Shown here one piece after another: positions 37,290 to 58,396 of a DNA stretch of 64,000 nt. Under the pieces are notes generated by a model. It was not told where the DNA came from. It worked only from the letters and a program-made list of their open reading frames with translations, and searched no databases. The stretch covers positions 36 through 64,035 of the forward strand of contig JARXAF010000151.1 in NCBI GenBank assembly GCA_029865985.1, read 5' to 3'. The position numbers and the translations under genes were made by a program. Position 1 is the stretch's first letter. Each line of letters opens with the position of its first letter. The DNA is from Verrucomicrobiota bacterium. GTDB lineage: Bacteria > Verrucomicrobiota > Verrucomicrobiia > Limisphaerales > UBA9464.

Positions 37290-38282
37290 GTGCGGTGCCA
37301 CCCTGTCCGGGTGAGCCATTTGAAACTCGCTCGGCAGGTCTTCGACATTGAATTGGCCGCACTGCGCTCGGTGAAGGGTTCCTTGGACGAGTCCTTCGAT
37401 CGCGGAATCGATTTGATCTGCGCCACCTTGGCAGCCCGCCGGAAAATCGTCGTCCTGGGCGTCGGCAAGTCCGGCAACATCGGTCGGAAAATCGCGGCCA
37501 CCCTGAGCAGCACGGGTTCGACGGCCGTGGTGCTCAATCCGGTCGATGCCTTGCATGGCGACCTCGGCATCGTGCAAGACGGCGACCTCATCCTCGCCCT
37601 CAGCTACTCGGGAGAGTCGTCCGAGTGGACGGACCTGCTTCCGGCACTGCGACGTTTTTCGGTCCAGATCATCGCCCTCACCGGCAACCCCAAATCCACG
37701 TTGGCTCAGCACAGTGATGTGATTCTCGATATCCGCGTTCCCCGGGAAGCCTGTCCCTTCAATCTGGCTCCGACGGCTTCGACCACCGCGACCTTGGTGA
37801 TGGGAGACGCCTTGGCCATCGCGGTGATGACCGCGCGCGGATTCCGGAAACAGGATTTTGCCCAACGCCATCCGGCTGGGGCCATCGGGCGAGCCTTGCT
37901 CTACAAGGTCGGTGACATCATGCGGCGCGACCAACGCAATGCCGTGGCGCGTCAGGATCAGACGGTTCAAGACGGATTGCTCACGATGACCCACGCCAAA
38001 ACCGGATCCGTCAGTGTGGTCGACGGCAAGGGGCGACTGGTGGGCGTATTCACCGATGGCGACCTCCGCCGACGGCTAGCGGCCCACGAAGACATTCTCC
38101 AGCGCCCGCTGAAGGAGGTCATGACCCGCAACCCCATCACCCTTCGCGACGACGCCCTCGCCGTGGACGCCTTACGCATCTTCAATGATCGCAATATCGA
38201 CGATCTGATCGTGGTCAACGCGCGCAAGGAACCCGTCGGATTGGTGGACTCCCAAGACCTGCCCAAGCTCAAGCTGATGTGA
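37290..38282 (+). CDS. kdsD: arabinose-5-phosphate isomerase (KpsF/GutQ/KdsD family; SIS plus 2 CBS)
   Basis: [24 protein letters not shown] (SIS), LSYSGES, and C-terminal CBS pair. GTG start at 37290 (alternative GTG at 37311). Confidence 0.85.
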
Positions 38283-38370
38283 TCCACACGATCGGATGAG
38301 ACGCCGGTTCCTCGAATGCCGGACGTTTTCGGCATTCCCGCCGAGCACTGCCGGACGTAGACTCACCGGC

Positions 38371-38859
38371 ATGGTACACGTCGGCATCGGTTACGATGTC
38401 CATTGTCTGGTTCCCGACCGCAAGTTGGTCTTGGGGGGCGTCGAGATTCCGCACAGCAAGGGCTTGGACGGTCATTCGGACGCGGACGCTCTGCTGCACG
38501 CCATCACGGATGCGGTCCTCGGAGCGATCGGCGAGGTCGACATCGGCCACCTCTTCCCAAACACCGATCCTGCCTGGCGCAACGCCCCCAGCCGCATCTT
38601 CCTGGAAGAAGCCGCTCGTCGCGTCCAAGCACGGGGCGGTCGGATCGTGAACATCGACGCCACCCTCATCGCCGAACAACCGAAGATCTACCCCCACATC
38701 ACCGCCATGAAGGCCCACATCGCCACCGCATTGGGTATCCCTCCGGGCAAGGTGGGCGTCAAGGCCACGACCAACGAAACCATGGGGTTTGTCGGTCGCC
38801 AAGAAGGCATCGCCGCCATGGCGGTGGCCTCGGTCAACCTGCCCGAAACCGAAGAATAA
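38371..38859 (+). CDS. ispF: 2-C-methyl-D-erythritol 2,4-cyclodiphosphate synthase
   Basis: ATG at 38371. VGIGYDVH...[19 protein letters not shown]...[11 protein letters not shown]. Confidence 0.92.
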
Positions 38860-38867
38860 CAGCAACC

Positions 38868-39152
38868 ATGGGAGCCAAAGCGGACATCGGATGGACCACC
38901 CCGGGACCCGACGGGATCAAACGCCACGTCTACGCCCAACATGTGGGTGATCAGTGGAAATTCTTCGAACGCCCCAAGCGACGCGGCTCGGACATCGAAT
39001 GGGTACCCATGCCCGAACCGCCGCTGGAAGATTGGCTGGAACTGCTCGACGCCCTGGAGCGGGGCTACGTGCGCCGACGCTACCCGCCGGAGCACATCGA
39101 AGCGGTGCGCAAACGCATCCGGGAAGTCTTCCCGGAACACCGCTTCCGGTGA
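38868..39152 (+). CDS. hypothetical small protein
   Basis: 94-aa ORF starting 8 nt after the ispF stop, with no recognised motif. Confidence 0.45.
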   Translation: MGAKADIGWTTPGPDGIKRHVYAQHVGDQWKFFERPKRRGSDIEWVPMPEPPLEDWLELLDALERGYVRRRYPPEHIEAVRKRIREVFPEHRFR

Positions 39153-39207
39153 TCCGCACAGGGTTTCCCCTTTTGAATGATCGCGGTTTCGGGACACAGT
39201 AACCGTC

Positions 39208-39963
39208 ATGAGCCGCCCGATCATTCTGGTGACGCCCAGCACCCACGCCGCCGGCGCGGAGTTTCCCGATCATTCCATCAGCGTCAGCAGCCGCTATCTG
39301 GAAGCGGTTCTCGATGCCGGAGGACTGCCTCTGGCTCTGCCTCAACTCACCCATCGAGGTCGGTTGGCCGAGTATCTGGAGCGAGCCGATGGCGTCTTGC
39401 TGACTGGCGGAGACGACATCCACCCGAAGCTCTACTGGCCGGAGGTTCCCCAGGAGTTGGTGGAACGCTGCGAGTTCCCGGAGCCCGATCGCGACGTGAT
39501 GGAACTCACCCTTTTGGACGAGCTCTTTCGACGTCCCAAGCCGCTGTTGGCCATTTGTCGCGGGCATCAACTGGTGAACGTGGCCCTCGGCGGATCGTTG
39601 TATGTCGATCTCCCCACCCAGCGGCCCGGCGATATCCCGCATGCTCAGATGGACCGCCGATTCGAACCGGTTCATGCGGTGGATATCGCTCCGGACAGTC
39701 AAGCGGCGGCCATCTACCGAGCCAAAACTTTGGGTGTGAACAGCACACACCATCAAGCCATCCACCGACTGGCTGATCCGCTGAAGATCACCCTCAGTGC
39801 GGCTGATGGTGTCATCGAGGGCACCGAGCTCCGGGCTGAAAGTTCCGGGCTGCTGCCGTGGTTTGCCTCGGTGCAGTTCCATCCCGAACGCCTTTATGCG
39901 GCCCACCCCGAACACGCCCGGATGTTCCGTGCCTTCGTTCAAGCCTGCTCACCCAAGCCATGA
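39208..39963 (+). CDS. class-I glutamine amidotransferase / peptidase C26 (gamma-glutamyl-GABA hydrolase-like)
   Basis: LAICRGHQLVNVALGG (nucleophile Cys) and SVQFHPE. Confidence 0.85.
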   Translation: MSRPIILVTPSTHAAGAEFPDHSISVSSRYLEAVLDAGGLPLALPQLTHRGRLAEYLERADGVLLTGGDDIHPKLYWPEVPQELVERCEFPEPDRDVMELTLLDELFRRPKPLLAICRGHQLVNVALGGSLYVDLPTQRPGDIPHAQMDRRFEPVHAVDIAPDSQAAAIYRAKTLGVNSTHHQAIHRLADPLKITLSAADGVIEGTELRAESSGLLPWFASVQFHPERLYAAHPEHARMFRAFVQACSPKP

Positions 39964-40748
39964 AACCCGGCCGCTACGTCATGAATCATTTCCTGCCGTT
40001 CCTCCTCCTCAGTGTGGTCTGTACAGCACTGCTGGGCGCAGAACCTGCATCACCCACAACGCGCCCCACACCGCCGGCCTACGAATATCGCCCCGGTTCC
40101 TTCGACGGGACCGGCAAGTGGTTTCTGGGCAGAGAAATCGCCCACTTCATGTCCCATCAAGGGGCACCGTGGCTCGAACGCGATGAGCGTGAAACAGAGG
40201 AAGCTCCCAATCGGTTGGTCAGCGCCCTGGGCCTCAAGCTGGGCGATCAGGTCGGTGACGTCGGAGCCGGGAGCGGATACCTGACCTGGCGCATGGCGCG
40301 GGTGGTGGGACCCATGGGCAAGGTTTATGCGAACGACATCCAACCAGAGATGATCGCCATCCTACGCACCAACTTGCTGGCGCGCGGCATCACCAATGTG
40401 ATCCCGGTGCTGGGCACCACCACCGACCCCAAACTTCCGAACAACACTCTCGACCTCATCATCCTCGTGGACGTTTACCACGAATGCGACCACCCGATGG
40501 AGATGGCCCGGCGCATGACCGACGCACTCAAACCCGGAGGCCGACTGGTGTTCGTGGAGTACCGAGGCGAAGAGCGGTGGATCCCGATCAAGCCCCTGCA
40601 CAAAATGACCGCTGCCCAGGTCCGCTCAGAAATGGCAGTCCATCCGAGTTTGGAGTTCGTGGAGAACCTGACGAACCTTCCACGCCAGCACATCCTCATC
40701 TTCCGGAAAAAGCCGGGAAGACAGGAACCTGGAACTGACAAACCTTGA
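39960..40748 (+). CDS. class I SAM-dependent methyltransferase with N-terminal signal/TM segment
   Basis: ATG at 39960 overlaps the upstream stop (ATGA). Motif I is VGDVGAGSGYLT. DLIILVDVYHE. Confidence 0.8.
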   Translation: MKPGRYVMNHFLPFLLLSVVCTALLGAEPASPTTRPTPPAYEYRPGSFDGTGKWFLGREIAHFMSHQGAPWLERDERETEEAPNRLVSALGLKLGDQVGDVGAGSGYLTWRMARVVGPMGKVYANDIQPEMIAILRTNLLARGITNVIPVLGTTTDPKLPNNTLDLIILVDVYHECDHPMEMARRMTDALKPGGRLVFVEYRGEERWIPIKPLHKMTAAQVRSEMAVHPSLEFVENLTNLPRQHILIFRKKPGRQEPGTDKP

Positions 40749-40804
40749 ACTGACAATTGACGCCCCCTCGGAAAACCGCCTACCGTCACGGCTCATTTCG
40801 GTGT

Positions 40805-40879
40805 TCCAGAGTAGCTCAATGGTAGAGCAATCGGCTGTTAACCGATGGGTTGAAGGTTCGAGCCCTTCCTCTGGAGCCA
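40805..40879 (+). tRNA. tRNA-Asn (anticodon GUU), CCA encoded
   Basis: TCCAGAG TA GCTC AATGGT AGAGC A ATCGG CTGTTAA CCGAT GGGTT GAAGG TTCGAGC CCTTC CTCTGGA G CCA. Confidence 0.92.
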
Positions 40880-41010
40880 TCTTTCCTCTTCGTCAATTCA
40901 CTGGTCCTTTCCCCCTGCGAATGGCCCGTCGTTCTCTCCGTTCGTCCTTTCAACCGTCATCGCCTGACAGACGTGTCTCCGCGGTTTTCCGTTCCTAGTC
41001 CTTGGCTGTT

Positions 41011-41706
41011 TCAGGCTAGGTCGAAAACCAGCACCTGAGACTCCGAAATCCCCTCAAGTTGCAGAACTTCAATCTCCGTCAGCGCCGCAGCATCGCCTGC
41101 CGACAAAACCTCCCCGTTGAGACGCAGTTGCCCTTCGGCCACATGAACCCAAGCGTGACGGCCCGGGGCCAAGCCATGACTCAGGCAATCTCCCGGCGAC
41201 AGTTTCCCAAGCCAAAGGTCGGCATCCTGATGCATGGCAATGGATCCGTTGCGACCCTCTCGATTGGCAATGAGGTGCAAAACTCCAGATGCGGCCCTGG
41301 CCATGGATTTCTCTTCATACCGGGGCGAGACCCCGCGGCGCTCCGGCACGATCCAAATTTGAAGCAACTGCACCCAATCCTGGGCTGAAGGATTCACCTC
41401 GCTGTGATGCACCCCGGTGCCGGCGGCCATATATTGAACGTCACCCGCTTGAATCACCCGTCCATTGCCCATGGAGTCCCGATGCTCCAGGGAGCCCTTC
41501 AGCACATAGGTGAGGATTTCCATGTCCCGGTGCGGATGCATTCCGAACCCCATCTCCGGGGCCACCCGATCATCATTGATGACGCGCAAACTTCGGAAAC
41601 CCATCCAACGGGGGTCGTGGTAATCGGCAAAACTGAAGGTGTGGAACGAATCCAACCAACCGTGGTTGGCGTGCCCGCGTTCTTGGCCCCGGCGGATCAG
41701 CATCAT
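41011..41706 (-). CDS. pirin-family protein
   Basis: ORF 41011..41985, with a realistic start at ATG 41706 (MMLIRRGQERGHANHGWLDSFHTFSFADY). HPHRDMEILTYVLKGSLEHRDSMGNG. Confidence 0.9.
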   Translation of the reverse strand: MMLIRRGQERGHANHGWLDSFHTFSFADYHDPRWMGFRSLRVINDDRVAPEMGFGMHPHRDMEILTYVLKGSLEHRDSMGNGRVIQAGDVQYMAAGTGVHHSEVNPSAQDWVQLLQIWIVPERRGVSPRYEEKSMARAASGVLHLIANREGRNGSIAMHQDADLWLGKLSPGDCLSHGLAPGRHAWVHVAEGQLRLNGEVLSAGDAAALTEIEVLQLEGISESQVLVFDLA

Positions 41707-41830
41707 GGGCCTCAAGGTGACCGAGCCCGCCCCGACGGGCAACTCGTGTGCCGCCCGACAAAGGCTGTTGAATTGTCCGTAGACCAGAGCCTGTCCCCAT
41801 GACAATTTCCACGGGAGAAATCCCCGAGCC

Positions 41831-43246
41831 ATGAATGCGTCCCAACCCCTCTGCAACGGCCCCTGGAGCAGCCGGCGCGAATGGCTTCGAGTGGGCGGGC
41901 TGGGGGCGTTTGGCCTCTCCCTTTCAAGCCTGCTGAACCCCGGAATCCAGGCCTGGGGATCGCCTGCCTCAACGGGCGCAGGCAACCGATTCGGTCAGGC
42001 CAAGTCGTGCATTCTCATCTTTCTGGCTGGTGGCCCGCCGCAACACGAGACTTTCGACCCCAAGCCCGATGCTCCGTCGGAAATTCGCGACAACTTCCGT
42101 TCCATCGCCACCCGAATTCCGGGCGCTCATTTCTGCGAGACATTGCCCTACACCGCCAAGGTGGCCCATCGACTGAGTGTCATCCGCTCGATGACCACGG
42201 AGATCGACGCCCATTCGACCAGCGGCGCCTTCATGCTCACGGGCTACGAACCCCAGACCAAGGCGGAGAATGTGCCTCCGGGCCCGCAAGATTGGCCCAG
42301 CATCGCCTCCGTAGTGGGCATGCTCAAACCCAGCACCCGCTCCCCCATGACGTCGGTGGTGCTACCGGAACCCCTGGCCAATGACGGCAACATCCTTTGG
42401 CCCGGACAAAATGGCGGATTCATGGGGCCTGCGTGGCATCCGATGCTCATGCGGTGCGACCCCACTCAGCTCCCGATGCAAATCGAGGGTTTGAGCCGGC
42501 AGGCGGGCGTCTCAGACCTGCGCCTTCAAGAGCGACGGAATTTGCTCGAGCAACTCGACGCCCATTTCCGTCAAGGCGTGGGCAGCGGGTCGGTTGCCTC
42601 TTGGGAGCAATCCCATCAGAAGGCCTTCGAACTCCTGCATGCCGACGCCAGCCGACGCGCCTTCGAACTCGAACGGGAACCCGCCTCGGTCCGTGAGGCC
42701 TATGGTCCCCACAAGTTCGGCCAGAGCCTCCTGCTGGCTCGTCGATTGGTGGAAGCCGGCACCCGATTGGTCCAAGTGAACTGGCCCCGCGAAGGCAAGG
42801 CCGAGGTCGCGGGCAGCCCCCTGTGGGATACCCATGCCAGCAACGCCAGCCGTGTCCGGGATGTGCTTTGCCCCCAATTCGACCGCTCCTTCGCCACCTT
42901 GATCGAAGACCTTTCAAGCCGCGGACTCCTCGACGAAACCTTGGTGGTCGCCATGGGTGAATTTGGTCGGTCCCCGAAGATCAACGCCGTGGGCGGACGC
43001 GACCATTGGGGAGCGTGCTTCTCGGTGGCTTTGGCCGGCGCCGGAGTGCCCGGCGGACAAATCATCGGCTCCAGTGACCGCATCGGTGCCTACCCGGATT
43101 CGCGCCCGGTCCGGCCAAGGGATTTTTCAGCGACGTTGTTTCACCTGTTGGGGTTGTCTCCGAGCGCCGAATTCCTCGATCCGCTGGGACGCCCCCGCAG
43201 CCTCACCGATGGCGGCGTGGCCCTCCGGGAAATCATCGGAACCTGA
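41831..43246 (+). CDS. DUF1501 domain protein (sulfatase-like fold, Tat signal)
   Basis: SRREWLRVGGLGAFGLSL Tat-like N-terminus. GGRDHWGACFSVALAGAGVPGG. Confidence 0.85.
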   Translation: MNASQPLCNGPWSSRREWLRVGGLGAFGLSLSSLLNPGIQAWGSPASTGAGNRFGQAKSCILIFLAGGPPQHETFDPKPDAPSEIRDNFRSIATRIPGAHFCETLPYTAKVAHRLSVIRSMTTEIDAHSTSGAFMLTGYEPQTKAENVPPGPQDWPSIASVVGMLKPSTRSPMTSVVLPEPLANDGNILWPGQNGGFMGPAWHPMLMRCDPTQLPMQIEGLSRQAGVSDLRLQERRNLLEQLDAHFRQGVGSGSVASWEQSHQKAFELLHADASRRAFELEREPASVREAYGPHKFGQSLLLARRLVEAGTRLVQVNWPREGKAEVAGSPLWDTHASNASRVRDVLCPQFDRSFATLIEDLSSRGLLDETLVVAMGEFGRSPKINAVGGRDHWGACFSVALAGAGVPGGQIIGSSDRIGAYPDSRPVRPRDFSATLFHLLGLSPSAEFLDPLGRPRSLTDGGVALREIIGT

Positions 43247-44190
43247 TCCACCCTCGACGCCACAGCGGTCCGCGAAATATCCGCATCCTCAAAGGGTGTT
43301 GGACGACGATTGCGCCCCGGTCGACGGAGCTCGGTCTGAAACCGTGATGGGGTCGCTGCGAACACACCTCGTCCCTGATTGGTGACCGATTCGACCAGTT
43401 CCAGCCGTCGATTTTGTATCCACTGCAACAACCCGTCTCGTTCCTTTTTGGACAGCGTTTCATCGCCCTTCCTACGAAGGAATCGGGAAAGGAGAAAGAG
43501 ATCGTGGTCTTCGCCGAGGTTTGCTCCCAGTCGGTCCAGCTTTGGGGTCCAAGTCGCCAATGACGACGGCAGCGAGTTCTGCACCGGAACCAGCTGATGC
43601 CACAAGCGCTTCGTGCACCGACGCCAACTGTGGAGATTCCGAGTCGATGGGTTACTGTGAACCCGGCGCAACGCACGACGGGCCTTGCGGTAAGAAGACA
43701 CGATCCCTGCCAGCACCCTCTGCCCCTCTCCGGCGCAAACGGGCGTTGATTGAAAACGCCGATCGAAGCTCTTCAGACGACGACGGATTTTCTGCGGACT
43801 CCTGCCGTGAACCAACTGCCTGATGTGCCCAAGGGACCCCTCACGGAGCTGGCGAGTCAGCGCCACCCAATGCTGGGTCGCTATCGCCGGACGCCCCGCC
43901 GCTGCAATGAGGGACAGGCTCTCCAGCCGAACCCTAGCATCCCGGGAATCGGACAACTCGGCTGAACATCGGCGCAGACAGCGCCTCTGTTGCCGAAATT
44001 TTCCGGGCCGCACCATCGGTCGGACCAAAGCCAACAATGCCCGCAACCGTTTCAACTCTTGTCGCACCTCGTGGATGACGGCGTCATCGAACTTCCCAGC
44101 CAATTCCGAACGGGCCCGGCGAACACGCACGTGCAACAACCGACGGACACCCTGATCGATGGTTTCCCCATTTTGGATGCGGTATGGCAT
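43141..44190 (-). CDS. CHAD domain protein
   Basis: 349 aa. VIHEVRQELKRLRALLALVRP and repeated helical RRxLK/R blocks typical of CHAD. The 3' 106 nt overlaps the DUF1501 gene convergently. Confidence 0.7.
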   Translation of the reverse strand: MPYRIQNGETIDQGVRRLLHVRVRRARSELAGKFDDAVIHEVRQELKRLRALLALVRPMVRPGKFRQQRRCLRRCSAELSDSRDARVRLESLSLIAAAGRPAIATQHWVALTRQLREGSLGHIRQLVHGRSPQKIRRRLKSFDRRFQSTPVCAGEGQRVLAGIVSSYRKARRALRRVHSNPSTRNLHSWRRCTKRLWHQLVPVQNSLPSSLATWTPKLDRLGANLGEDHDLFLLSRFLRRKGDETLSKKERDGLLQWIQNRRLELVESVTNQGRGVFAATPSRFQTELRRPGRNRRPTPFEDADISRTAVASRVDQVPMISRRATPPSVRLRGRPSGSRNSALGDNPNR

Positions 44191-44476
44191 GGATCCAGTC
44201 TCGCCTGAACCCCAGTCGGTGACCTGTCAGATTTCAGGCACCTTGCCACCCCGTGGAATCCCTGCAGAAATGGAATGGGCCCCAGTTCATTCTGGAACCA
44301 TCGCCCGTTGATGCCTTCGAAACCCGTCCACTGCGTTCCAGCCATGCCTGCGTTACGTTTTCGTGGCATGACTCTCCCACCAACACGATCTCGGCGACGA
44401 TCTCTCTTGGCTTGAACTTGGGTTTCGCGATCTCCTTATCCATCTATCGGGACGATCCCGTCCCAGCCCTCATTCC

Positions 44477-45043: not shown

Positions 45044-45227
45044 TTGACTGACAGTCTTTGGATCTCCGCATGGGCCCCTTGCTGGATGCGCTTCGAGACA
45101 TCCAGCCTCTGGGATTTAACGGACCCGCCTGCGAGAAAAAAGCCGCTGCATTGACAGCGGCCGATTCACGGCCAATTCACGGCCAAACGGCGGCTGAAAC
45201 CGCCCTGCACCAACACCGCAGCCCCGA

Positions 45228-46028: not shown

Positions 46029-46213
46029 TGGATTCTCCCATGATCAAAACCCCGAAAGCCTTGAATCACAAGCCGCAACCCCAAATCGCCAAAAAAGCCC
46101 CGTGGGTTATCCCCATCGAGGCTTCTCTGAAGGTGCTGCATCTTCTGAGCTGGAAAGACCAGCTCAGCCAGAATGCGCGATCCCATTGAATCGTTCCGAC
46201 TGAGAGAGGAACC

Positions 46214-46711
46214 TCAGTTATTCATTCGGGCGAACACGATCACCCGCACCGGCTCGTCGGAACCGGCCAACTTGAACGAATTCATCGTTCCGAAGGTGAA
46301 CCCCTGCGAAGTGATGTGCATGTCACGACCACGAATGAACGTGGGGATCGTCAACTTCAGCACGATGTTCAATCGGTCCAGCCGGTTTTTCAGACCGCCG
46401 GCAACCATGTTGGTCAACTCACCCACGGCATCGCGCATCTCGGCATCGCCGAACTGCGAGGAACCCAGCATTCCGCCGACGACCTTCTGTGCCACCTGGG
46501 AACCGAACACCAAATGGACATTGGCCGTCAGGCCACCGGTCATCCCAACGACTGCCGCCACTCCATCAACGTCGAAAGATTCAGGAGCGGGCTCATTCGC
46601 AGACGACTCGATCTGACTTCCGGTCATCATCGACAAGACATCCCGGGTCACTGCGTCAACCATCGGTGCTATTTGGGGCGGTTCGTTGTTCATTTGTTGA
46701 GAAGGGTCCAT
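46214..46711 (-). CDS. cheX: chemotaxis phosphatase CheX-like protein
   Basis: 165 aa. VAAVVGMTGGLTANVHLVF...DAVGELTNMVAGGLKNRL. Confidence 0.75.
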   Translation of the reverse strand: MDPSQQMNNEPPQIAPMVDAVTRDVLSMMTGSQIESSANEPAPESFDVDGVAAVVGMTGGLTANVHLVFGSQVAQKVVGGMLGSSQFGDAEMRDAVGELTNMVAGGLKNRLDRLNIVLKLTIPTFIRGRDMHITSQGFTFGTMNSFKLAGSDEPVRVIVFARMNN

Positions 46712-46865
46712 TTATCGACCCCATTTTTCAAACCATATCGGGAGTAAAGCCGTAATCATTTAGCTAAATTAACCCTGGATTAGAAACAAAACAGCCACCC
46801 CACCCACTTCGAAATCGCATCGAAATCAGGAACAGGCTCTTTCAAGTCTCCGCCATGAACCAAAA

Positions 46866-46957
46866 ACAGCCTGTCCCTTGTGTCCTTTGTGCCTCGACAG
46901 CCTGTCCCTCGGTATTTCTTCGAGCCCATCCCCATGCCCGTGCACTGGGGACAGGCT
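46866..46957. repeat. cluster of the AGCCTGTCCC motif upstream of the BFN nuclease gene
   Basis: ACAGCCTGTCCCT at 46866-46878 and 46897-46909. An inverted copy GGGACAGGCT at 46948-46957. A partial copy TCCTGTCCCC at 47018-47027, just before ATG 47029. Confidence 0.8.
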
Positions 46958-47028
46958 CTCCAAACTCGGCAAGTCCCCTATGGGACGCTGGCTTGCGTTG
47001 GCAGGTCCGCCGTTCCTATCCTGTCCCC

Positions 47029-47508
47029 ATGGCGAATGACGTCATCCCGGTGAAGGTTCGTGGCATCCTGCCCGCAAACAGCGGCTGTGCCTTGTTCATC
47101 GGTAACGATGAAAAGGTGTTCGTCATCCAGGTCGAACAAAACATGGGCTTGGTGATCGGGATGGCCATTCGAGGCACCCCAAAGGATCGCCCCCTCACTC
47201 ACGACTTGATGGGGTTGGTGTTCCAAGGGTTTGGCATCGAATTGGAGCGGGTCGTGATCACGGCTCTCAAGAATTCCACTTTTTTTGCCCGGCTCATCTT
47301 GCGCCAGCAAAACGAGTTGGGGACCAAACTTGTGGAAATAGACGCCCGCCCAAGTGATTGCCTGGCACTGGCCAGCGCCCTCAAACGCCCCATTTTTGTC
47401 ACGCGCAGCCTTTTCCGAGAGGTGGAAGACATGAGCGAACACCTGGCCGGCGCCAATGATCAGGAAGAGGACAGTGCCGAAGGCGGAGACCTCGGTGAAC
47501 AGGCTTGA
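47029..47508 (+). CDS. bifunctional nuclease (BFN/DUF151) family protein
   Basis: ATG at 47029 (MANDVIPVKVRGI). PLTHDLM and VEIDARPSDCLALA. Confidence 0.85.
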   Translation: MANDVIPVKVRGILPANSGCALFIGNDEKVFVIQVEQNMGLVIGMAIRGTPKDRPLTHDLMGLVFQGFGIELERVVITALKNSTFFARLILRQQNELGTKLVEIDARPSDCLALASALKRPIFVTRSLFREVEDMSEHLAGANDQEEDSAEGGDLGEQA

Positions 47509-49460: not shown

Positions 49461-49509
49461 TTCCTCGGCCCACGGTCCATCGAAGCCTTCATCCTAAAAA
49501 GATTAGCCC

Positions 49510-49541: not shown

Positions 49542-49599
49542 TATTACCTGTCAGCGGTCGCTTGCTTCAAGCGACGACCCTCATACCTTCTGGTGCTTT

Positions 49600-52500
49600 A
49601 TGCCTGTCCCGTCCGCCACCCTGCGCCGTCGTCTGGCCGCCATCACTCTGGGAGTCGCCACCACTGCGATTCCTGCCCTTGCCCAACACAAGTTGGGCCC
49701 ACAACAAACCTCCTTCAAAGCACCGGCCATCGCCGCTGCATCCGACGAGGCCGAGCGAGCCATCAAACGCTTCACCTATCCTGCGGGATGGAAGGCTGAA
49801 CTCTGGGCCGCCGAACCCGATGTCGCCCACGGTGTCGCGTTTGACGTCGCCGACGATGGCCGGGTCTTCGTCGCGGAAAGTTTCCGAGCCTGGAGGGGCG
49901 TTCCGGACATCCGGGGCATCATGGACTGGCTCGACGAAGACTTGGCCTGCAAATCAGTGGACGACCGTTTGGCGATGATGCGTCGGCACCTGAAGCCCGA
50001 CCAGATGGCCGGCTACTACACGAACACCGAACGAATCCGCCTGCTGCGCGATACCCGGGGCGCTGGCAAGGCCACGGTGTCCACAGTGTTCGCCGAAAAT
50101 TTTGCCACTCCGCTCGACGGCGTCGCCGCCGGTGTGCTGGCCCGCGGCCAGGATGTGTTCTTCGCCAACATCCCGAACGTCTGGCGCCTGCGCGACGCCG
50201 ACGGGGATGGCGTCGCCGACGAACGTCGCAGCATCAGTTATGGCCACGGAATCCGAGTCGGCTTCCTGGGCCACGATCTCCATGGCCTGGTCTTCGGACC
50301 GGACGGTCGACTTTACTTCTCGATCGGTGACCGCGCCTCGATGATCCAGACGGAAGGACACACGGTCGGAACTCCGGACAGTGGGGCTGTCTTCCGTTGC
50401 GAGCCCGATGGATCTCACCTCGAAATGGTCTATCAGGGACTCCGCAATCCGCAGGATCTGGTCTTTGATGCCTGGGGCAACTTGTTCACCGGCGACAACA
50501 ACTCCGACGGCGGCGACCAAGCCCGTTGGACCTGGTTGGTCGAAGGGGGCGACAGCGGTTGGCGCATCGGTTGGCAATTCCTCGAAGGTCGCAGCGCACC
50601 CAACCCGCGCGGCCCATGGAATTCGGAGAAAATGTGGCATCCCCAAAACAATGCCCAACCGGCCTACCTGACCCCTCCGATCAAGAACATCTCCTCCGGC
50701 CCCAGCGGCGTGAGCCACTACGAGGGCACCGGCAGCGGTCCCGAATGGAACGACACCTTCACCTTGTGCGATTTCCGGGGCAGCTCAAGCGGCTCCGGTT
50801 TGTGGAAGTTCAAGCACAAGGCCAAGGGCGCAGGCTTCGAGATCGTGGATGACCAGAAGTTCATCTGGTCGGTCAACGCCACCGACGGCCATTGGGGGCC
50901 GGATGGTTCCTTCTGGGTGCTCGACTGGTTCGACGGTTGGGAACCCGTGGGCAAGGGACGGATTTATCGTTTCTCGGATCCCCGCCATTCACAGTCGGAG
51001 CTCGTGCGCGAAACCAAGGCCATTCTGGCCGAAGGCTTCGCCAAGCGATCGGTCGGTGATTTGTCCAAGTGGCTCAACCACGCCAACTATCGGGTGCGCC
51101 TCGGAGCCCAGTTTGAATTGGCGGCCCGTCAGGACGACAAGGCGCTCCTCAAGGCAGCGCTTTCTGCCAAGACACTCCACGCCCGCATCCATGGCATTTG
51201 GGGCGTTGGACAAGTGGCCCGCGCCCAGCGCAATACCGCGGTTTCAGGAGCACGGGTCGACTCTCTGGAGCGGCTGATCCCTCTCTTGGCCGACACCGAT
51301 GCGAAGGTCCGCGCCGTGGCCGCCACCGTTCTGGGTGATGCCCGCTATGGTCGTTCCTACGAGGCCCTGATCCGCCTGACCCGCGACAGCGATCCGCACA
51401 CCCGCGCGCTGGGCACGATCGCCTTGGGCAAACTGGGCCGTCGGGAATCCATCCCGGCTGTCTTTGATCTACTGGCCGACAACGCCGACAAAGATCCTTA
51501 CCTGCGACATGCCGCGGTGACGGCCTTGCTGGGAGCCAATGACATCGACGCCCTGGTCAACCACGTGCGCCATGCCAATGCCTCGGTTCGGATGGGCATC
51601 CTGCTGGCGATGCGGAAACTCGAGCGCAACGAAATCGCTGCCTTCCTCGCGGATGCGTCCCCGGCGATCGTCACCGAGGCAGCACGAGCCATCAACGACC
51701 AGCCCATCCCTGGCGCCATGGAAGCCATGGCCCGCTTGATCGAGCGACCGGGGCTGACAGAGGCCCCGCTCCTGCGCCGGGTGCTCAACGCCAACTACCG
51801 CTTCGGCACCGAGGCCACCGCTCGGGCGCTCGCCGCCTACAGCACACGTGAAGACGCGCCCGTGAACTTCCGTGTAGAAGCCATCGACGCCCTCACTGAG
51901 TGGCCCGCCAATTCCGGTCGGGACCGCATCACTGGACTTTGGCGTCCCACCGCCTTCGCCCGTTCCGAGAAGGTGCCCGGCGAAGCATTGAAGCCACTTG
52001 CCAACGGGCTCTTGGCTGCAGCGCCGGCCCCGGTCCGGGCCGCAACAGCCCGAGCAGCCGGAACACTCAAACTCACTGAAGCCTCCCCGGCCCTGGCAGC
52101 ATTGATCATCCAGGGTGCCGCCGACGGCGCCGCGCGCTCCGACGCCCTGCGTTCCTTGTCGCTCTTGAAAACCCCCGAATACGCTGCCGCGCTGGCCGCC
52201 GCCCGTGACGACAAGGATGAGAAGGTCCGCAGTTTGGCCACTCAACTGGCCGTCGAAGTGCCGCCCATCGCTGCTCGCAATGGTGGATCCGGTAGCAACT
52301 CCGGTGGCGGTGGATCGACTGGCCCACTGGAGAAGGCCCTGGCCAGCGGATCCCTGACGGAAAAGCAATCGGCACTATCCACGTTGGCATCGGTCAAAGG
52401 TGCTGACGCCGACGCGCTGCTGAAGCACTGGCTGGACGGAGTCCTCGCCGGCACCGTCGCCGCAGAATTGGAACTGGATGTCTTGGAGGCCGCCGGCCAG

Positions 52501-53007: not shown

Positions 53008-53062
53008 CCGGTACAGGCTCCGCCCGCTGAAAGTCCGATCGGCGGGCGGAGCCCATCCCTTC

Positions 53063-53971: not shown

Positions 53972-53990
53972 GCCTCTTACGGATTCACCC

Positions 53991-54524
53991 ATGAAACCCG
54001 ATCGGCTCATCGAGGACCTCACGCTCGTTCCCCTGCCTCAGTGGTGGGAGAGTCCTTGGTTTCTCCTGAGCTTGCCGGTCGTGATCGGGATTCTGGCCTA
54101 CTGGCTCCGCCATGGGTGGCTCAAACGCCAACCGGCGGCATCGGCTCGTATCGTCCCGGAAGGCCCGGCTGCCCACGAATCGTTCCTCCAGCGTCTGGCC
54201 GCATTGCGGGCCGATCGTTCCCGCTGGGTCGCCTATCCCTTCGGAATCGAAGTCAGCGACATCCTGCGCGGTTATCTCGAAGCCCGCTACGCCTTCTCGG
54301 TTCAGTTTCAAACGTCACGCGAGTTTCTCGAATCGGCAGTCCATGACGCCCGATTCAACCCGATCCATCGGGCGACCCTCACGGGTTTTCTCGGTCAATG
54401 CGACTTGCTCAAATTCGCACAAGGCAAAGCCACTGAAGCCGAACTGACCGCACTCATCGACACGGCCGAGCGGTTCATTCGGGAATGTGCCGGACTTCCG
54501 AGCTCTGAAGGAGGTCCACCTTGA
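53991..54524 (+). CDS. small membrane protein (DUF4381-like position in the Bat operon)
   Basis: ATG at 53991. One TM segment (WFLLSLPVVIGILAYWL). Its stop overlaps the next start (TTGA at 54521-54524). Confidence 0.5.
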   Translation: MKPDRLIEDLTLVPLPQWWESPWFLLSLPVVIGILAYWLRHGWLKRQPAASARIVPEGPAAHESFLQRLAALRADRSRWVAYPFGIEVSDILRGYLEARYAFSVQFQTSREFLESAVHDARFNPIHRATLTGFLGQCDLLKFAQGKATEAELTALIDTAERFIRECAGLPSSEGGPP

Positions 54525-55474
54525 AGGATCTTCTGGCCATCGAGTTCCTCTACCGTTGGGTCTTACTGGGCCTGCTGGTGCTGCCGGTGCTTGCATGGTT
54601 CCATCGCAAACCCAGAGCCGTGCCCTCACTCGTTGTGCCGTCGCTTTTCGGCCGGAGCCATCTGGGTCATATCCCGGCTCGTCAGCGGGCGATGACCCAC
54701 GCGCTGTGGACTCTCATCCCGCTGGCGCTGCTCATCGTCGGACTGGCCCGCCCCCGCATGCCGCGGGGTGATTTGCCCGATCCCAGTAAGGGCATCGACA
54801 TCATGCTCGCCCTCGACTTCAGCCGCTCGATGGCCGAGACCGATTTCCGGCTAGAGCGCAAGCGGGTCACCCGCCGTGCAGCCCTGGAATATGTCACCGA
54901 GAAATTCATCCTGGGCCGACCCAATGACCGGATTGGCATCGTTTGTTTCGCGCGAAACCCCTTTTTGGTCAGCCCATTGACCTTGGATCACCGCTGGGCC
55001 ATCGAATCCATGCATCAAACCGATTTGGCCACCGGAACCGGCATCGGTTGGGCAGTGATGGCCGCTGGAAACTTCCTACGCAAAGACAGCGATCGCAGCA
55101 AGGTGGTCATCCTGGTGACCGATGGTGACAATTCGTCCGGCCCTCGCGCCTCGGAGATCATCGGGCAACTGGCCCGCGACAAGGTCAAACTCTACTCCGT
55201 CCTGATCGGACCTGAGATGGTGGTTCCTTCCGTCGCCGCCAATCACGACCTCAACCGTGCCGCCCGAATCACTGGCGGACAATTCTTCCAAGCCAACGAC
55301 ACGCGGGCCCTGCAAGGCATCTACAACCTCATTGACCAATTGGAAAAGCGGGACTTGATCCAGAAGCGTTTCGTGTTGTGGCAGGAACTCTTCGCCTGGC
55401 CTGTGGCCATCGGATCGCTGCTCTGGCTGGGTGGATGGATCTGGAAATCGCTCCTGCGGAGGCAACTGCCATGA
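54521..55474 (+). CDS. VWA-domain membrane protein, BatA-like
   Basis: TTG start. N-terminal TM segments. MIDAS DFSRSM, and VVILVTDGDNSSG. Confidence 0.85.
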   Translation: MKDLLAIEFLYRWVLLGLLVLPVLAWFHRKPRAVPSLVVPSLFGRSHLGHIPARQRAMTHALWTLIPLALLIVGLARPRMPRGDLPDPSKGIDIMLALDFSRSMAETDFRLERKRVTRRAALEYVTEKFILGRPNDRIGIVCFARNPFLVSPLTLDHRWAIESMHQTDLATGTGIGWAVMAAGNFLRKDSDRSKVVILVTDGDNSSGPRASEIIGQLARDKVKLYSVLIGPEMVVPSVAANHDLNRAARITGGQFFQANDTRALQGIYNLIDQLEKRDLIQKRFVLWQELFAWPVAIGSLLWLGGWIWKSLLRRQLP

Positions 55475-56526
55475 GATTTGCCCACCCCGCCCTGCTGCTG
55501 CTCATTCCGGTCCTGATCGCACTGATCCTCGGAACCCGAATTCTCCAGGCACGGCGCGACCGGCGTCGGATCGCAGACTTCTCAGGTTCCACCGATCGGC
55601 CGTGGTCGGCTCCGGGTTGGGTGCCGTGGCGTCAACGGGTTGACTATGTGATGGTCATGGCTGTGGCCATCCTGCTGCCGTTGGCACTGGCCCGTCCCTT
55701 GGCCTTCCGCATGAACGAGCAGTCGGAACTGCGCGGCGTGCCCTACATGATCGCGCTCGATCTTTCCCGATCCATGCTGGCAACGGACGTCCGCCCCAAC
55801 CGTTGGTTTGCTGCCACCAACGCATTGTCCCGTTTTCTCGATTCCGGCCGAGCCGACCGGGTGGGGCTGATCACCTTCAGCGGAGTCGCCTACCTCAACG
55901 CTCCGCTTAGCTTCGATACCCGAGCCATCCAAGCGATGTTGCGCTATGCCTCGCCTTACACGGTGGAAATGGACGGTGAAACCGCAGGATCCAACCTGGG
56001 TTCGGCCATTGAGCGGGCAGGACGGTATTTCCAGACCAACAACATCCAACCCCGAGTCGTCATTCTAGTCACCGACGGCGAGGATTCGGGCGAGCAGTTG
56101 CTGGAATTTACCCGACGTTGGGCCCGACAGGGCGTCAAGGTTTGCGCCGTTGGAGTCGGGACTCGGGGTGGTTCCAAGGTTCCACGGATCCAATGGGGTG
56201 GCGTGGCCAAGAACAATTCCGGCCAGGAAGTTGTCTCCCGACTCAACGAAGCCAACCTCAAACGCATCACAGCATTGACCGGAGGCCGTTACGTCCCGCT
56301 GGGAGACCAAGGAGAAGGGTTCACCACCCTCCGCCAGGAATTTCTCGCCCCACTGGCCGAGAGCGCGGCTCGGGAAGACACCAAGAATTACATCGAGGCT
56401 TATCCGGTTCCGCTATCCTTGGCCATCGCCGCGCTGATCACCCAGGTCATCATCGGAGCCCGCCGCCACCAGCGTCCCCGCAGCCTCTCGGCCATTCGAA
56501 CCACACCGCCTCCTGTCGTCCCATGA
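55471..56526 (+). CDS. VWA-domain membrane protein, BatB-like
   Basis: ATG at 55471 overlaps the upstream stop (ATGA). MIDAS DLSRSM, and VVILVTDGEDSG. Confidence 0.85.
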   Translation: MRFAHPALLLLIPVLIALILGTRILQARRDRRRIADFSGSTDRPWSAPGWVPWRQRVDYVMVMAVAILLPLALARPLAFRMNEQSELRGVPYMIALDLSRSMLATDVRPNRWFAATNALSRFLDSGRADRVGLITFSGVAYLNAPLSFDTRAIQAMLRYASPYTVEMDGETAGSNLGSAIERAGRYFQTNNIQPRVVILVTDGEDSGEQLLEFTRRWARQGVKVCAVGVGTRGGSKVPRIQWGGVAKNNSGQEVVSRLNEANLKRITALTGGRYVPLGDQGEGFTTLRQEFLAPLAESAAREDTKNYIEAYPVPLSLAIAALITQVIIGARRHQRPRSLSAIRTTPPPVVP

Positions 56527-58220
56527 TCAACCTCCCAAGACGACCCACACTCCAACAGCGCCCCCCATTGGGGAGCCTGTCCCTTACCCAGGCTCAGCCC
56601 CGGAAATCCCAGAGCCTGTCCCTAGTTTCACTCTTTCGGAGCCTGTCCCTAGTCCTTGCGGTTCTGGCCGCAGTCTTGGCTGTTACAGCGGTCATTACAG
56701 GGTCGGCTCTCGCCGATAATGGCCCACTCAAGATCGCGCTATTTCAACAACAGTTGACCAACGGTGCGCCTCAGGTCGTTGCCGACGCCCTCGCTCTGGA
56801 AGCCGAACAAAACCCAACAAGCCCCCATATCCAATACAACGCCGGTGTTGCCGCCTATGCAGCCCACCGCTGGGAAGACGCCTTGGTGGCATTCGACCGG
56901 GTGGAAACCCTGGGCCATCGAGGTTTGGCTCAGTTGGCGCGTTTCCAACGCGGCAACGCAGAATATCAATTGGGGGTCGAATCCAAAGCTGCCAACCTGG
57001 ACGAAACGGTCTCCCGATGGCGGGCTGCTTTGGAGGCGTATCAAGCCATCCTCAAAGAACAGCCCAACGACCTTCGCTCCACTGAGAACGACGCGTTCGT
57101 GCGGGGTAAACTTTTGGATCTACTCCTCGAAGAGGCCCGCAAGGCTGCCGATCAGGCCAATCAACCCGCCAAGACACCCGCGCAGCGAATTCCGGACCTT
57201 CGCAATGCACACGAAAAATACTCCGATGCGCACCAACTAAGCCCGAATCATTCAGAGGCTCAAAAAGGTGAGGCTGAAACCAAAGACCGCCTCGCTGAGG
57301 CGCTCAAACAGGAAGGTCTACGAAATGTTCAGCATCCTTTATCGTTGAAGGCTAGTCGTAGAGAACCACGCCTTCCGGAGGTAGACGCCTCGAAGCTAGA
57401 ACAAGGCATCTCACAACTGGAAGAAAGTCAGCAACTACGTCCCGGTGATCCCCAGGTCGACGAAGCGCTCAAGAAAGCCAAGGACCGTTTGGCAGACGCC
57501 AAAGTCAAACAAGCGGAGACCTTTTTGGCGCTGGAAGAGCAAATACCCATCACCAAAGAGAAATTGGCCCTCCTGAGAATGGCGCGCGAACAAATCGATC
57601 ATGCACTGGAACAATCGCCTCAACATCAGGAGGCCCAACGCACCGGTGAAGAAATCGATCGCCGCATGGCTCAAGTGCATGAAGACGAGGGAGACTTCCA
57701 AGAACAGCAAGCGGCCTTTTCCCAACCGGAGCAGCAGGCCATGCAATTGAGTCAAGCGCTGGACCATTTTCAGCAAGCCTCTGAACTTCGACCCAACCAA
57801 CCGCAGTTGCAGGCCAAACAGGAAAAGGCCCAACAGAAATTGGCTCAAACCCTCGATAAACTGGCCGACAAGCTCATGCAATCGCCCGCGGGACAAGAAC
57901 CCACGGAAGCCAAAGCAGCCCGCCTAGAAGGTGCTGAGCAGGCGCTCAATGAACTGCAAGCCATCCAACCCAGCGACCGCACCTCCCAACGGGCTGAGCA
58001 AGTCGGCAAAGAGCTCGATGGGTTACGCCAAATGCTCGCAGACAAAAGCAAGGAACCCTCGGAAAGCCCCGGCCAGGGTGATCCAAAAAACGGAGCCCAA
58101 CCCATACCGGCTCCGCCTCAGTGGATGACCCCTCCCCTGGACGGACCGCCACGCATCAACCAACCCGGCAACAAGGGACAGGCTCCCAAAAGCGCCGGTC
58201 GGAATATTCGCGACTACTGA
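56523..58220 (+). CDS. TM plus TPR plus long Gln/Glu-rich coiled-coil protein (BatC/BatD-like position)
   Basis: ATG at 56523 overlaps the upstream stop (ATGA). TM segment LVLAVLAAVLAVTAVI. TPR-like YNAGVAAYAAHRWEDALVAFDRV. The longer track ORF (from 56118) overlaps BatB and was rejected. Confidence 0.7.
   Translation: MINLPRRPTLQQRPPLGSLSLTQAQPRKSQSLSLVSLFRSLSLVLAVLAAVLAVTAVITGSALADNGPLKIALFQQQLTNGAPQVVADALALEAEQNPTSPHIQYNAGVAAYAAHRWEDALVAFDRVETLGHRGLAQLARFQRGNAEYQLGVESKAANLDETVSRWRAALEAYQAILKEQPNDLRSTENDAFVRGKLLDLLLEEARKAADQANQPAKTPAQRIPDLRNAHEKYSDAHQLSPNHSEAQKGEAETKDRLAEALKQEGLRNVQHPLSLKASRREPRLPEVDASKLEQGISQLEESQQLRPGDPQVDEALKKAKDRLADAKVKQAETFLALEEQIPITKEKLALLRMAREQIDHALEQSPQHQEAQRTGEEIDRRMAQVHEDEGDFQEQQAAFSQPEQQAMQLSQALDHFQQASELRPNQPQLQAKQEKAQQKLAQTLDKLADKLMQSPAGQEPTEAKAARLEGAEQALNELQAIQPSDRTSQRAEQVGKELDGLRQMLADKSKEPSESPGQGDPKNGAQPIPAPPQWMTPPLDGPPRINQPGNKGQAPKSAGRNIRDY
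56574..56653. repeat. three direct copies of AGCCTGTCCCT inside the 5' end of the BatC/D-like gene
   Basis: Copies at 56574-56584, 56613-56623 and 56640-56650. A 15-mer GAGCCTGTCCCTAGT occurs at 56612-56626 and 56639-56653. Each copy is read in frame as S-L-S-L. Confidence 0.85.
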
Positions 58221-58396
58221 CACACTGTCGGAAACTCACCACTCAGCCGACCTCAGCCAACCTATCGTCATCGAGGGTAGCCTGTCCCTCCGCTCCTTTC
58301 ATCCCCCCTTTCCTGAACTCTATCTGATCCTGCTGCATTCTGTTTCCGGAAGAAGCCTGTCCCCAACTTGGCCCACGCTCGTCATAGCCTGTCCCT
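58175..58396. repeat. four further copies of the motif at the 3' end of and downstream from the BatC/D-like gene
   Basis: GGGACAGGCT at 58175-58184 (inverted). AGCCTGTCCCT at 58279-58289, AGCCTGTCCCC at 58354-58364 and AGCCTGTCCCT at 58386-58396. Confidence 0.85.

Follow-up and report, generated by a model that had tools for sequence, protein, structure and literature searches.

The stretch of DNA analysed here (the window) comprises 64,000 nucleotides of a Verrucomicrobiota bacterium and corresponds to C55:36-64035, that is, to most of one contig (C55) of a metagenome-assembled genome (MAG) of 3.6 Mb, 216 contigs and 61% G+C, which we call G000. The window contains 13 exact copies of the 10-mer AGCCTGTCCC (GGGACAGGCT on the opposite strand), 10 on the + strand and 3 on the − strand. 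Dinucleotide-preserving shuffles of the window yield a mean of 0.21 copies and a maximum of 2. The word is probably the core of the inverted ends of a Y1 transposase gene family, one member of which begins just past the end of the window. The original prediction, made from the sequence of the window, had listed the 13 copies and called their number far above chance; an exact-match search recovers every one of them at the coordinate and on the strand given, and the excess is confirmed both here and in the whole genome. The copies, together with two near-matches, are placed as follows:

37748..37757, + strand: solo copy in kdsD (SIS and CBS domains; 37311-38282), read as E-A-C-P
41788..41797, + strand: solo copy in the divergent region between the Pirin gene (41011-41805, −) and the DUF1501 gene (41831-43246, +), 34 nt before the DUF1501 ATG
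43911..43920, − strand: solo copy in a CHAD-domain gene (43141-44190, −), in the frame S-L-S
46829..46838, − strand: one-mismatch copy AGCCTGTTCC bordering the 46.9-kb cluster
46868..46957: three-copy cluster (46868 +, 46899 +, 46948 −) in the divergent region between the CheX gene (46214-46693, −) and the BFN-domain gene (46993-47508, +)
49601..49610, + strand: 9/10 match TGCCTGTCCC overlapping the ATG of a 1135-aa gene
56574..56649, + strand: three-copy cluster (56574, 56613, 56640), in frame in the N-terminal tail of the TPR (BatC/D-like) gene (56523-58220)
58175..58184, − strand: copy in the C-terminal codons of the TPR gene (K-G-Q-A)
58279..58395, + strand: three copies (58279, 58354, 58386) in the convergent spacer between the TPR gene and an HDOD gene (58626-59558, −)

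The intergenic placements that had been read from the sequence (Pirin/DUF1501, CheX/BFN and downstream of the VWA-TPR, or Bat-like, genes) are correct, as are the coding ones (E-A-C-P in KdsD, S-L-S in the CHAD and TPR genes), and the view that the signal resides in the DNA and spans coding and non-coding regions is supported. The copies at 46899 and 46948 form an inverted pair with a 39-nt spacer. In the TPR gene, which starts with the ATG at 56523, each of the three copies of the 56.6-kb cluster is translated as S-L-S-L ahead of a signal-anchor helix. One-mismatch copies in the window number 7, and 5.4 matches with zero or one mismatch are expected, which is close to chance. The 9/10 copy reported at a start codon does exist (49601-49610), with 13 occurrences of this variant genome-wide against 5.4 expected; it is probably a chance match, and we left it out of the family.

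In G000 as a whole we detected 210 exact copies of the word (96 on the + strand and 114 on the −), which makes it the second most frequent 10-mer of the genome, behind a GC triplet repeat. The genome-wide enrichment check proposed with the original prediction gives a ratio far from 1: Markov models of order 3-4 expect ~5 copies, and the observed number is a ~45-fold excess. The 30 one-mismatch variants each occur near expectation, the highest with 27 observed against 9.7 expected. A logo of 208 copies has its information confined to rG-AGCCTGTCCC-Y(T)tg, and conservation does not extend beyond ~13 nt. The sharpness of the word and the absence of outer conservation indicate that the word is real and is not part of some longer dispersed element; a longer mobile element or a miniature inverted-repeat transposable element was rejected on the same ground, and because the spacers differ between arrays. 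Other frequent 10-mers of G000, such as GGCCAAGGCC, GCCTTGGCCA, CAAGGCCAAG and similar words (110-190 copies), look like a GGCCAA-type coding repeat. All counts reported here come from fragmented MAGs, and copy numbers are lower bounds because both the repeat arrays and the Y1 genes break contigs.

The copies fall into 113 clusters, among them 74 singles, 18 doubles and 11 triples, with 14 copies in the largest. Close neighbours are overwhelmingly direct repeats: 86 of the 92 neighbour pairs within 200 nt have the same orientation and 6 are inverted. Four head-to-tail arrays with a period of 18 bp contain 12, 14, 7 and 7 units, in which the 10-mer is invariant and the 8-nt spacers are array-specific (TTGGAAAG, TTGTGAGC, TCCCGAGC or TTGGGGGG). 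According to a home-made codon-usage gene caller, non-coding DNA makes up 13% of the genome and contains 160 of the 210 copies (76%), the intergenic clusters occupying 24 divergent, 33 co-directional and 4 convergent regions. About 15 of the 50 copies assigned to coding sequence are at the extreme 5' end of called genes, and ~30 are truly intragenic, in all frames. The overall density is ~58 copies/Mb, or 31 loci/Mb (one locus per 32 kb), with no copy in 151 of the 216 contigs, and copies are absent from 60% of assembly bases. When GTDB (596 Gb) was scanned for paired copies, multi-locus matches were found only in freshwater Verrucomicrobia MAGs; the matches in many other phyla were singletons, as chance tandem repeats would give. 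A metagenome scan returned no same-species contigs, and a literature search for the word itself matched only unrelated eukaryotic primers.

The word flanks genes of a Y1 transposase family. In G000:C32:2938-3957(-), next to a word cluster, lies a gene for a 340-aa Y1_Tnp protein (Pfam E=4e-11). On the coding strand of this gene, two copies of GGGACAGGCT are found ~52 nt before the ATG and four copies of AGCCTGTCCC 250-370 nt past the stop codon. The first 26 codons of the Y1 gene recur, 100% identical, at C55:64999-65076, ~960 bp past the window end (approximately 64964-65041 in window numbering), and a GGGACAGGCT word at C55:64938-64947 lies 61 nt upstream of this contig-end fragment, which belongs to the type we call a. 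The contig of the window therefore ends within the repeated type-a Y1 gene, at an assembly break, and because the gene starts only beyond the window, the original prediction could not take the decisive gene into account.

A genus-wide search detected the Y1 family in all 24 genomes, often as contig-end fragments. Homologues of at least 60% identity from 12 congeners (numbered from G001 onwards) form two paralogous lineages, and they have the same inverted flanks wherever the fetched locus includes the flank, with GGGACAGGCT ~52 nt before the ATG and AGCCTGTCCC 230-370 nt past the stop. Each of the two lineages occupies a syntenic locus across species; the gene nonetheless also occurs as many contig-end fragments, and at least two near-identical N-termini are present in G000. 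The conserved left end of the unit reads GGGACAGGCT-CTTTTTCTGAAAGAA, i.e. GGGACAGGCT-[C/G]TTTTT(C)TGAAAGAA, and is followed by a hairpin overlapping the start codon. This hairpin, TCATGAGG-cagacg-CTTCATGA, stands directly upstream of the Y1 ATG in loci L141-L148, its 3' arm including the start codon. The one-mismatch copy at 46829 in the window, which reads GGAACAGGCT-CTTTC on the + strand, resembles the left end GGGACAGGCT-CTTTTTC, and is probably a decayed member of the neighbouring cluster. Between the Y1 stop codon and the words of the right end there are ~240 nt of conserved non-coding DNA (in L141, G000:C32 about 2940-3190; also in L143 and L144). They contain a GGCCT-N8-AGGCC hairpin and, in G000, two copies of a 22-nt direct repeat ccagaaggcctacctttggacc, with no match in Rfam; this stretch may encode a small RNA or belong to the right end. 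No tnpB gene was found adjacent to the Y1 genes in the loci we read.

More distant members of the family have related boxes at the same place. Paralogues of ~40% identity possess the box GTGACAGGTTCA ~45-60 nt before the ATG, where the word stands in the other genes, and the ~10-15 copies of GTGACAGGTTCA in G000 are mostly directly upstream of these paralogue genes. The group itself comprises ~10-15 copies in G000, mostly at contig ends (C67, C69, C78, C80, C86, C92, C118, C177, C203), and behaves more like an ordinary insertion sequence (IS). In unrelated large genomes, members of 42-47% identity have the box (A)AAGGGAC(A/G)GGT, i.e. (A)AGGGACAGGT, ~50-75 nt before the ATG, and one distant member has an inverted copy of the box downstream as well. 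The box of the distant members is unamplified in their own genomes (5 and 16 copies against 7 and 9 for controls). These similarities suggest that the word of the window is a lineage-specific version of a family-wide end box. One further locus, L194 (GCA_942490575.1, CALNYA010000038.1), contains two Y1 genes of the family ~9 kb apart within 21 kb, as well as a long run of C (69 overlapping C10 words).

The Y1 protein is a divergent relative of the REP-associated tyrosine transposases (RAYTs; REP, repetitive extragenic palindrome) with an insertion and a C-terminal extension. In 52 aligned members (41-89% identity), H62-F63-H64 and Y174-I-D-L-N178-P179 are invariant, and the members also share a conserved C-terminal part. 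The motifs HuH and Y---NP are signatures of class 2, TnpA-REP or RAYT (PMC6006769). The best NCBIfam match is the REP-associated tyrosine transposase model NF047646 (E=1.8e-15), the NCBIfam IS200 match having only E=0.006; a PDB sequence search gave only weak IS200-type matches. An AlphaFold2 model (mean predicted local distance difference test 84.6, predicted template modelling score 0.84) displays an HUH core with ~53 extra residues that are predicted to form three helices (72-124) between beta3 and alphaC. Y1 transposases account for all of the model's 30 best PDB matches, the closest in geometry being the E. coli RAYT-REP complex 4er8_A (template modelling score 0.72, root mean square deviation 3.3 Å). 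Type-a orthologues are intact, with ratios of nonsynonymous to synonymous substitution rates of 0.13-0.22; the Y1 protein is under purifying selection.

Across the genus, the abundance of the word follows the lineage of the Y1 gene:

G000 and 16 congeners (17 genomes): 73-275 copies of AGCCTGTCCC; best type a/b Y1 homologue at least 60% identical
G005 and G016 (incomplete MAGs): 39 and 57 copies; best type a/b homologue ~40%
G010 and G012: 22-24 copies; best type a/b homologue 44-52%
G006, G008, G017 and G018: 4-8 copies (background); best type a/b homologue 35-50%
12 other families of the order: background

All 17 genomes with at least 73 words thus have a Y1 gene of at least 60% identity, and all 6 with at most 24 words have only relatives of at most 52%. 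In the four congeners without the word, a different word takes its place. In G017 and G008 the Y1 genes have AAGGGACACGTCC and GGACGTGTCCCTT as their flanks, and GGGACACGTCC is the candidate word for the G017-type Y1 protein. The corresponding GGACGTGTCCC has 60 copies in G006, 45 in G017, 27 in G018 and 20 in G008, and 0-4 in the other 20 genomes. The genomes in which GGACGTGTCCC is amplified are exactly the four that lack AGCCTGTCCC, and in G017 and G008 it flanks their own Y1 variant. The dialect of the repeat switches together with the gene. A variant predicted for G010 and G012, AACCTGTCCC, is amplified nowhere.

The word is also concentrated around the Y1 genes. Of the 113 clusters in G000, 26 are no more than 30 kb away from one of five type a/b Y1 gene pieces, a territory of 2.6% of the genome (8.9-fold enrichment, p=1e-17), and within 10 kb the enrichment is 11.5-fold. 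The distance to the Y1 gene at C55:64999 is 6.6-27 kb for all 13 copies in the window, whose first 37 kb are word-free; the local density that had attracted attention is explained by the Y1 gene close by at the contig end. In G011 and G016, no Y1 gene follows the neighbour that precedes it in G015, and no type-a homologue of at least 60% identity was found; the same two genomes also lack the three window clusters at 46.9, 56.6 and 58.3 kb. Downstream synteny in G011 and G016 differs from that of the Y1-bearing locus, and the boundaries of the Y1 unit cannot be read from an empty-site comparison with them.

Comparison of orthologous loci, which had also been proposed with the original prediction, reveals clusters that persist and copies that do not. 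The 46.9-, 56.6- and 58.3-kb clusters have counterparts at orthologous positions in G001-G004, G007, G009, G014 and G015, oriented alike wherever the two flanks allowed anchoring, amid surrounding intergenic DNA that is unalignable; copy number varies. Upstream of the BFN gene, arrays occupy the same position, and run the same way in the loci anchored on both sides, in G001, G002, G003, G007, G009, G014, G015, G005 and G031. They consist of 1-10 units of 11 bp (AGCCTGTCCCT), 12 or 18 bp and end ~25 nt before the Shine-Dalgarno sequence and ATG; words are absent from this position in G011, G016, G006, G017, G018 and G010. The spacer between the TPR and HDOD genes measures 200-430 nt where it contains 2-4 words (G001-G004, G009, G014, G015), and 132 nt (G011) or 26 nt (G016) where it contains none. 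Clusters thus persist as local populations, in which individual copies are gained, duplicated and lost.

Several copies are located in coding sequence. The N-terminal cluster of the TPR gene is represented in orthologues by 1-5 in-frame copies, the spacings all being multiples of 3 (24-48 nt). G011 and G016 have the same gene without an N-terminal word, G011 having the near-match AGCCacTCCCT at that place. In the K-G-Q-A codons of the TPR tail, G011 and G016 have GGGACAGGCc and eight species of the inner subclade have GGGACAGGCT; the copy at 58175 goes back to an ancestral near-match in the coding sequence, which a single synonymous change has turned into the exact word. The inverted pair 58175/58279 was therefore rejected as a mini-element, its left word being ancestral coding sequence. 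A peptidase-like gene (G000:C85:676-2742) has two exact words in its signal-peptide region (S-L-S-P and S-L-S-L), and its orthologues (L184-L187) include the near-match AGCCTCTCCC in G011 and TGCCTGTCCC in G016. It seems that hydrophobic N-termini of the type L-S-L-S-L provide natural near-cognate seeds, or landing sites that tolerate the word.

The solo copies of the window have varied histories. The copy in kdsD is encoded by the same codons, within a conserved motif, in the orthologues of G015 and G009 (three species in all), and may be maintained by protein constraint. At 41788, the orthologous site is unchanged in G009 and differs by two substitutions in G015 (AGtCTGTtCC), which indicates turnover of a solo copy. 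The copy at 43911 belongs to a ~1.2-kb segment with the CHAD gene (window 43247-44476) for which the syntenic regions of G015, G009 and G016 gave no alignment; the relatives have a spacer of 175-513 nt there, without the word, as against ~1230 nt in G000, and the segment looks like a lineage-specific insertion or a fast-evolving gene. Elsewhere in the window there are two tRNA genes (Rfam RF00005; 40805-40876, +, and 16712-16783, −). Nothing relevant emerged when the window clusters and the Y1 locus were scanned for Rfam families, promoters and terminators.

Taken together, these observations suggest, with a probability of roughly 0.72, that the word forms the conserved core of terminal inverted repeats belonging to a RAYT-like HUH/Y1 gene family and has been amplified as REP-like repeats. 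The gene would be a lineage-specific, TIRYT-like member of TnpA-REP class 2, ~340 aa long, that falls between subclasses 2.1 and 2.3. In one subclade of the genus, which is a freshwater one, the word has escaped from the Y1 flanks and formed a REP-like family of roughly 70-275 copies per genome, which appear singly, in a few inverted pairs, in loose clusters of direct repeats and in head-to-tail arrays with units of 11, 12 or 18 bp. Most of its sites are in promoter-bearing intergenic DNA, and a few are in frame within genes. The biochemistry of Y1 HUH enzymes is established for IS608, ISDra2 and the E. coli RAYT. By analogy with these, the Y1 enzyme would recognise the word in single-stranded DNA and probably nick and rejoin it, acting preferentially in cis and seeding copies nearby. 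The arrays would then grow and shrink by replication slippage or by enzyme-mediated cutting and rejoining between neighbouring words; single copies would decay, while clusters would persist at the same loci across species. A spread of the word through its binding or cleavage by the protein would likewise follow from this analogy, and any effect on neighbouring genes is putative.

Several observations weigh against this reading. Its main weakness is how a non-hairpin unit of 10-12 nt would be recognised or moved; to our knowledge, such a word is unlike every characterised Y1/RAYT substrate. The score of the protein against NF047646 (57.1 bits) is below the curated 80-bit cut-off, and the C-terminal DnaA-C/HTH Pfam domain is absent from searches of the C-terminus at E<=10 and of the 52 members at E<=0.05. 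Relatedness confounds the association of word counts with Y1 lineage, since species poor in the motif are at the same time more distant (66-72% as against 78-83% coding identity), and two genomes, G005 (39 words) and G016 (57), have words and no close Y1 homologue detected, both being incomplete MAGs. Some coding copies, such as KdsD E-A-C-P and TPR K-G-Q-A, are explained by protein constraint. Finally, a host-selected function would also be compatible with the exact words at orthologous intergenic sites of eight species and with arrays that abut ribosome-binding sites.

Four explanations had been offered with the original prediction, and of these a miniature repeat element comes close, whereas a regulator site, an uptake sequence and a KOPS-like motif fit poorly. 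A host-selected binding site, be it an operator or an architectural site, for a domesticated Y1 protein or an unrelated factor, with arrays that tune the expression of adjacent genes and with selection, not transposase activity, amplifying the word, is unlikely, although it does not exclude the transposase origin. The preference of clusters for promoter-bearing regions, the arrays that stop ~25 nt before the BFN gene's Shine-Dalgarno sequence and ATG in nine species, and the exact words that persist at orthologous sites amid unalignable intergenic DNA would all suit such a site, and periods of 11 bp would put the sites on one face of the DNA. However, the genes that face the clusters are unrelated housekeeping genes (nuoA, an Rrf2 regulator, yicC, rpsO, purD, deoC, thrC, a SUF component, hsp20), and the word has the sense orientation for 46 of them and the antisense orientation for 42. 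With neither a common theme nor an orientation bias, we rejected a regulon, and with it the proposed global regulator. A single locus that varies from 0 to 10 copies with periods of 11-18 bp is hard to square with a tuned operator; copies also occur in frame in coding DNA and in a convergent spacer, the one-mismatch variants stay near background, unlike typical collections of transcription-factor sites, and the concentration near Y1 genes is strong. Somewhat less probable still is a pre-existing repeat into or beside which Y1 elements preferentially insert. Insertion sequences that target REPs are documented, for example ISPpu9 (PMC8450116), and the flanking word matches the dialect of the host genome in both subclades. 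Such a preference is disfavoured because the box stands at a fixed ~45-60 nt before the ATG, contiguous with the conserved left end, and because a related box accompanies distant members in genomes where it is not amplified (5 and 16 copies against 7 and 9). Moreover, the paralogue box GTGACAGGTTCA of G000 is found essentially only beside those paralogues, and the Y1 genes are syntenic across species and not scattered over varied word sites.

It is improbable that the copies are minisatellite or slippage products of a few seeds, made without a dedicated enzyme and only incidentally linked to Y1 genes. Within an array the full 18-bp unit repeats, spacer included, as slippage would produce, and the spacers look like micro-duplications of the word (e.g. 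TAGCCTCT, TCCCGAGC). Slippage cannot, however, make 113 separate loci that share only the exact 10-mer and have unrelated flanks and spacers, and it leaves the architecture of the Y1 flanks, the dialect switch and the proximity unexplained. We give very little credence to a DNA uptake sequence serving as a tag for natural transformation, although a sharp exact word with variants near background, a lineage-specific distribution with another 'dialect' in the sister clade, and copies on both strands recall one. The density is low, 151 of 216 contigs having no copy, and 76% of copies lie in 13% of the genome; 86 of 92 close pairs are direct repeats and tandem arrays are many, and the clusters gather near transposase genes, of whose inverted ends the word is a part. 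The least probable is a strand-polar, replication-oriented motif of chromosome architecture such as KOPS (FtsK orienting polar sequences) or Chi. The C-rich form stands on the locally C-rich strand in 48 of 69 non-coding clusters (48:21; Fisher p=4e-4), counted on contigs of a MAG without a map of origin or terminus, and GGGACAGG resembles GGGNAGGG. This 70% concordance is uninformative, since by our estimate a word with four more C than G would reach ~60-64% from compositional skew alone; composition may account for the strand bias. KOPS and Chi are dispersed singly, mostly in genes, whereas this word forms intergenic tandem arrays and is missing from 60% of assembly bases.

Beyond the origin of the word in Y1 ends, one may go further and propose that a RAYT-like HUH enzyme propagates a 10-nt non-hairpin word as units down to 11 nt and so diversifies regulation and protein termini. 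We consider this stronger claim doubtful. Were it true, the word would be the smallest repeat unit tied to a dedicated transposase, with hypervariable arrays beside ribosome-binding sites and in-frame S-L-S-L insertions in N-terminal tails, and it would provide a defined DNA target for enzymes of RAYT group 1 or subclasses 2.1-2.3. These, the largest RAYT groups (Bertels group 1, Quentin 2.1 and 2.3), are without a known substrate. Surveys list them without repeats, partly because seeds of 16 nt or longer miss a 10-nt core with variable flanks. The genus represents a natural experiment, in which one protein family is combined with at least three dialects of the end box and with amplification in some lineages only. 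It supplies a concrete oligonucleotide for binding and cleavage assays, and a case study of a transposase end turning into a repeat that is found throughout the genome and alters promoters, intergenic spacers and even the N-termini of proteins. In practice, such arrays break short-read MAG assemblies, and they could pass for uptake sequences or regulator sites.

Among known systems, the closest parallel is the TIRYT/TIRtron system (Di Nocera 2013, PMC3733652), in which genes are flanked by inverted repeats that share GGGGWSAS, some of them forming moderately abundant families with dimers and clusters (PMC3733652). Both systems combine a RAYT-like Y1 gene with short inverted repeats, which are not REP hairpins, at a fixed distance, and both have a G-rich shared motif (GGGGWSAS, compared with (A/G)GGGACAGGCT here), dispersed dimers and clusters, and several distinct genes per genome, each with its own repeat. 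When the word and the preceding base, (A/G)GGGACAG, are compared with GGGGWSAS, 25% of copies (those with G) match at 8/8 positions and 70% (with A) at 7/8; distant Y1 members have AAGGGACAGG at the comparable box. Unlike in TIRYTs, the shared part is only 10-12 nt long, there are 70-275 copies per genome, the host is a member of Verrucomicrobiota, and head-to-tail arrays of 11-18 bp and in-frame coding insertions occur.

In Quentin et al. 2018, TIRYTs are identified with subclass 2.1, for which no REP-like structures were found (PMC6006769), and which equals RAYT group 1 of Bertels et al. 2017 (PMC5581495); the flanking 16-mers of group 1 average only ~12 copies (PMC5581495). Subclasses 2.1 and 2.3 are both listed as 'REP: no' (PMC6006769, Table 1). 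Subclass 2.1 is characterised by NH[YF]H and YIELNP, and subclass 2.3 by a length of 325 aa, a 55-aa beta3:alphaC insertion, YVDLNP, NHYH and several copies (PMC6006769); the C-terminal extension of subclass 2.1 has similarity to Bac_DnaA_C, HTH_23 and HTH_28. The protein described here resembles both subclasses in HuH, Y---NP and the lack of REP hairpins. Its N-H-F-H fits the NH[YF]H of subclass 2.1, whereas its length of 340 aa, the ~53-aa beta3-alphaC insertion, Y-I-D-L-N-P (close to YVDLNP) and the several copies are as in subclass 2.3. It departs from 2.1 in having no DnaA-C/HTH Pfam match in the C-terminus and from 2.3 in having NHFH instead of NHYH, and from both in the amplification of the cognate word to hundreds and in a host phylum other than those reported.

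With the REP/REPIN-RAYT systems (Nunvar 2010; PMC3116915; 4er8, PMC3479197) it shares a Y1 gene, here probably inherited vertically, with inverted flanking repeats, hundreds of intergenic copies, a repeat type that co-varies with the gene lineage, long-lived repeat populations and a predicted structure nearest to 4er8. REPs, however, are imperfect palindromes of 20-40 nt with a GTAG/GTGG foot, mostly in inverted doublets, whereas this word is non-palindromic and 10-12 nt long, close pairs are direct in 86 of 92 cases, tandem arrays are common, and the Y1 gene exists in more than one copy and breaks assemblies. The HUH/Y1 fold and the presumed single-stranded DNA substrate are shared with the IS200/IS605 elements (IS608, ISDra2), and the hairpin over the start codon is reminiscent of IS200 translational control; in contrast to these elements, the protein has Y---NP and not Y---Q, and the unit has neither subterminal hairpin ends nor, in the loci read, an adjacent tnpB. 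The DNA uptake sequences of Neisseria (DUS) and the uptake signal sequences of Pasteurellaceae (USS) are similar in being sharp exact 10-mers with lineage-specific dialects, but they occur about once per 1-2 kb across core genes, singly or in inverted pairs, unlike the present word with its lower density, its direct clustering in intergenic DNA, its concentration near transposase genes and its membership in Y1 inverted ends. The system as a whole works like a REP/RAYT (TIRYT) system, consisting of a Y1 gene and its cognate inverted-end word. What sets it apart is how short the unit is, how many copies of it there are and how strongly direct repeats and 11-18-bp arrays prevail, together with the in-frame coding insertions, the dialect switch within one genus, and the host phylum.

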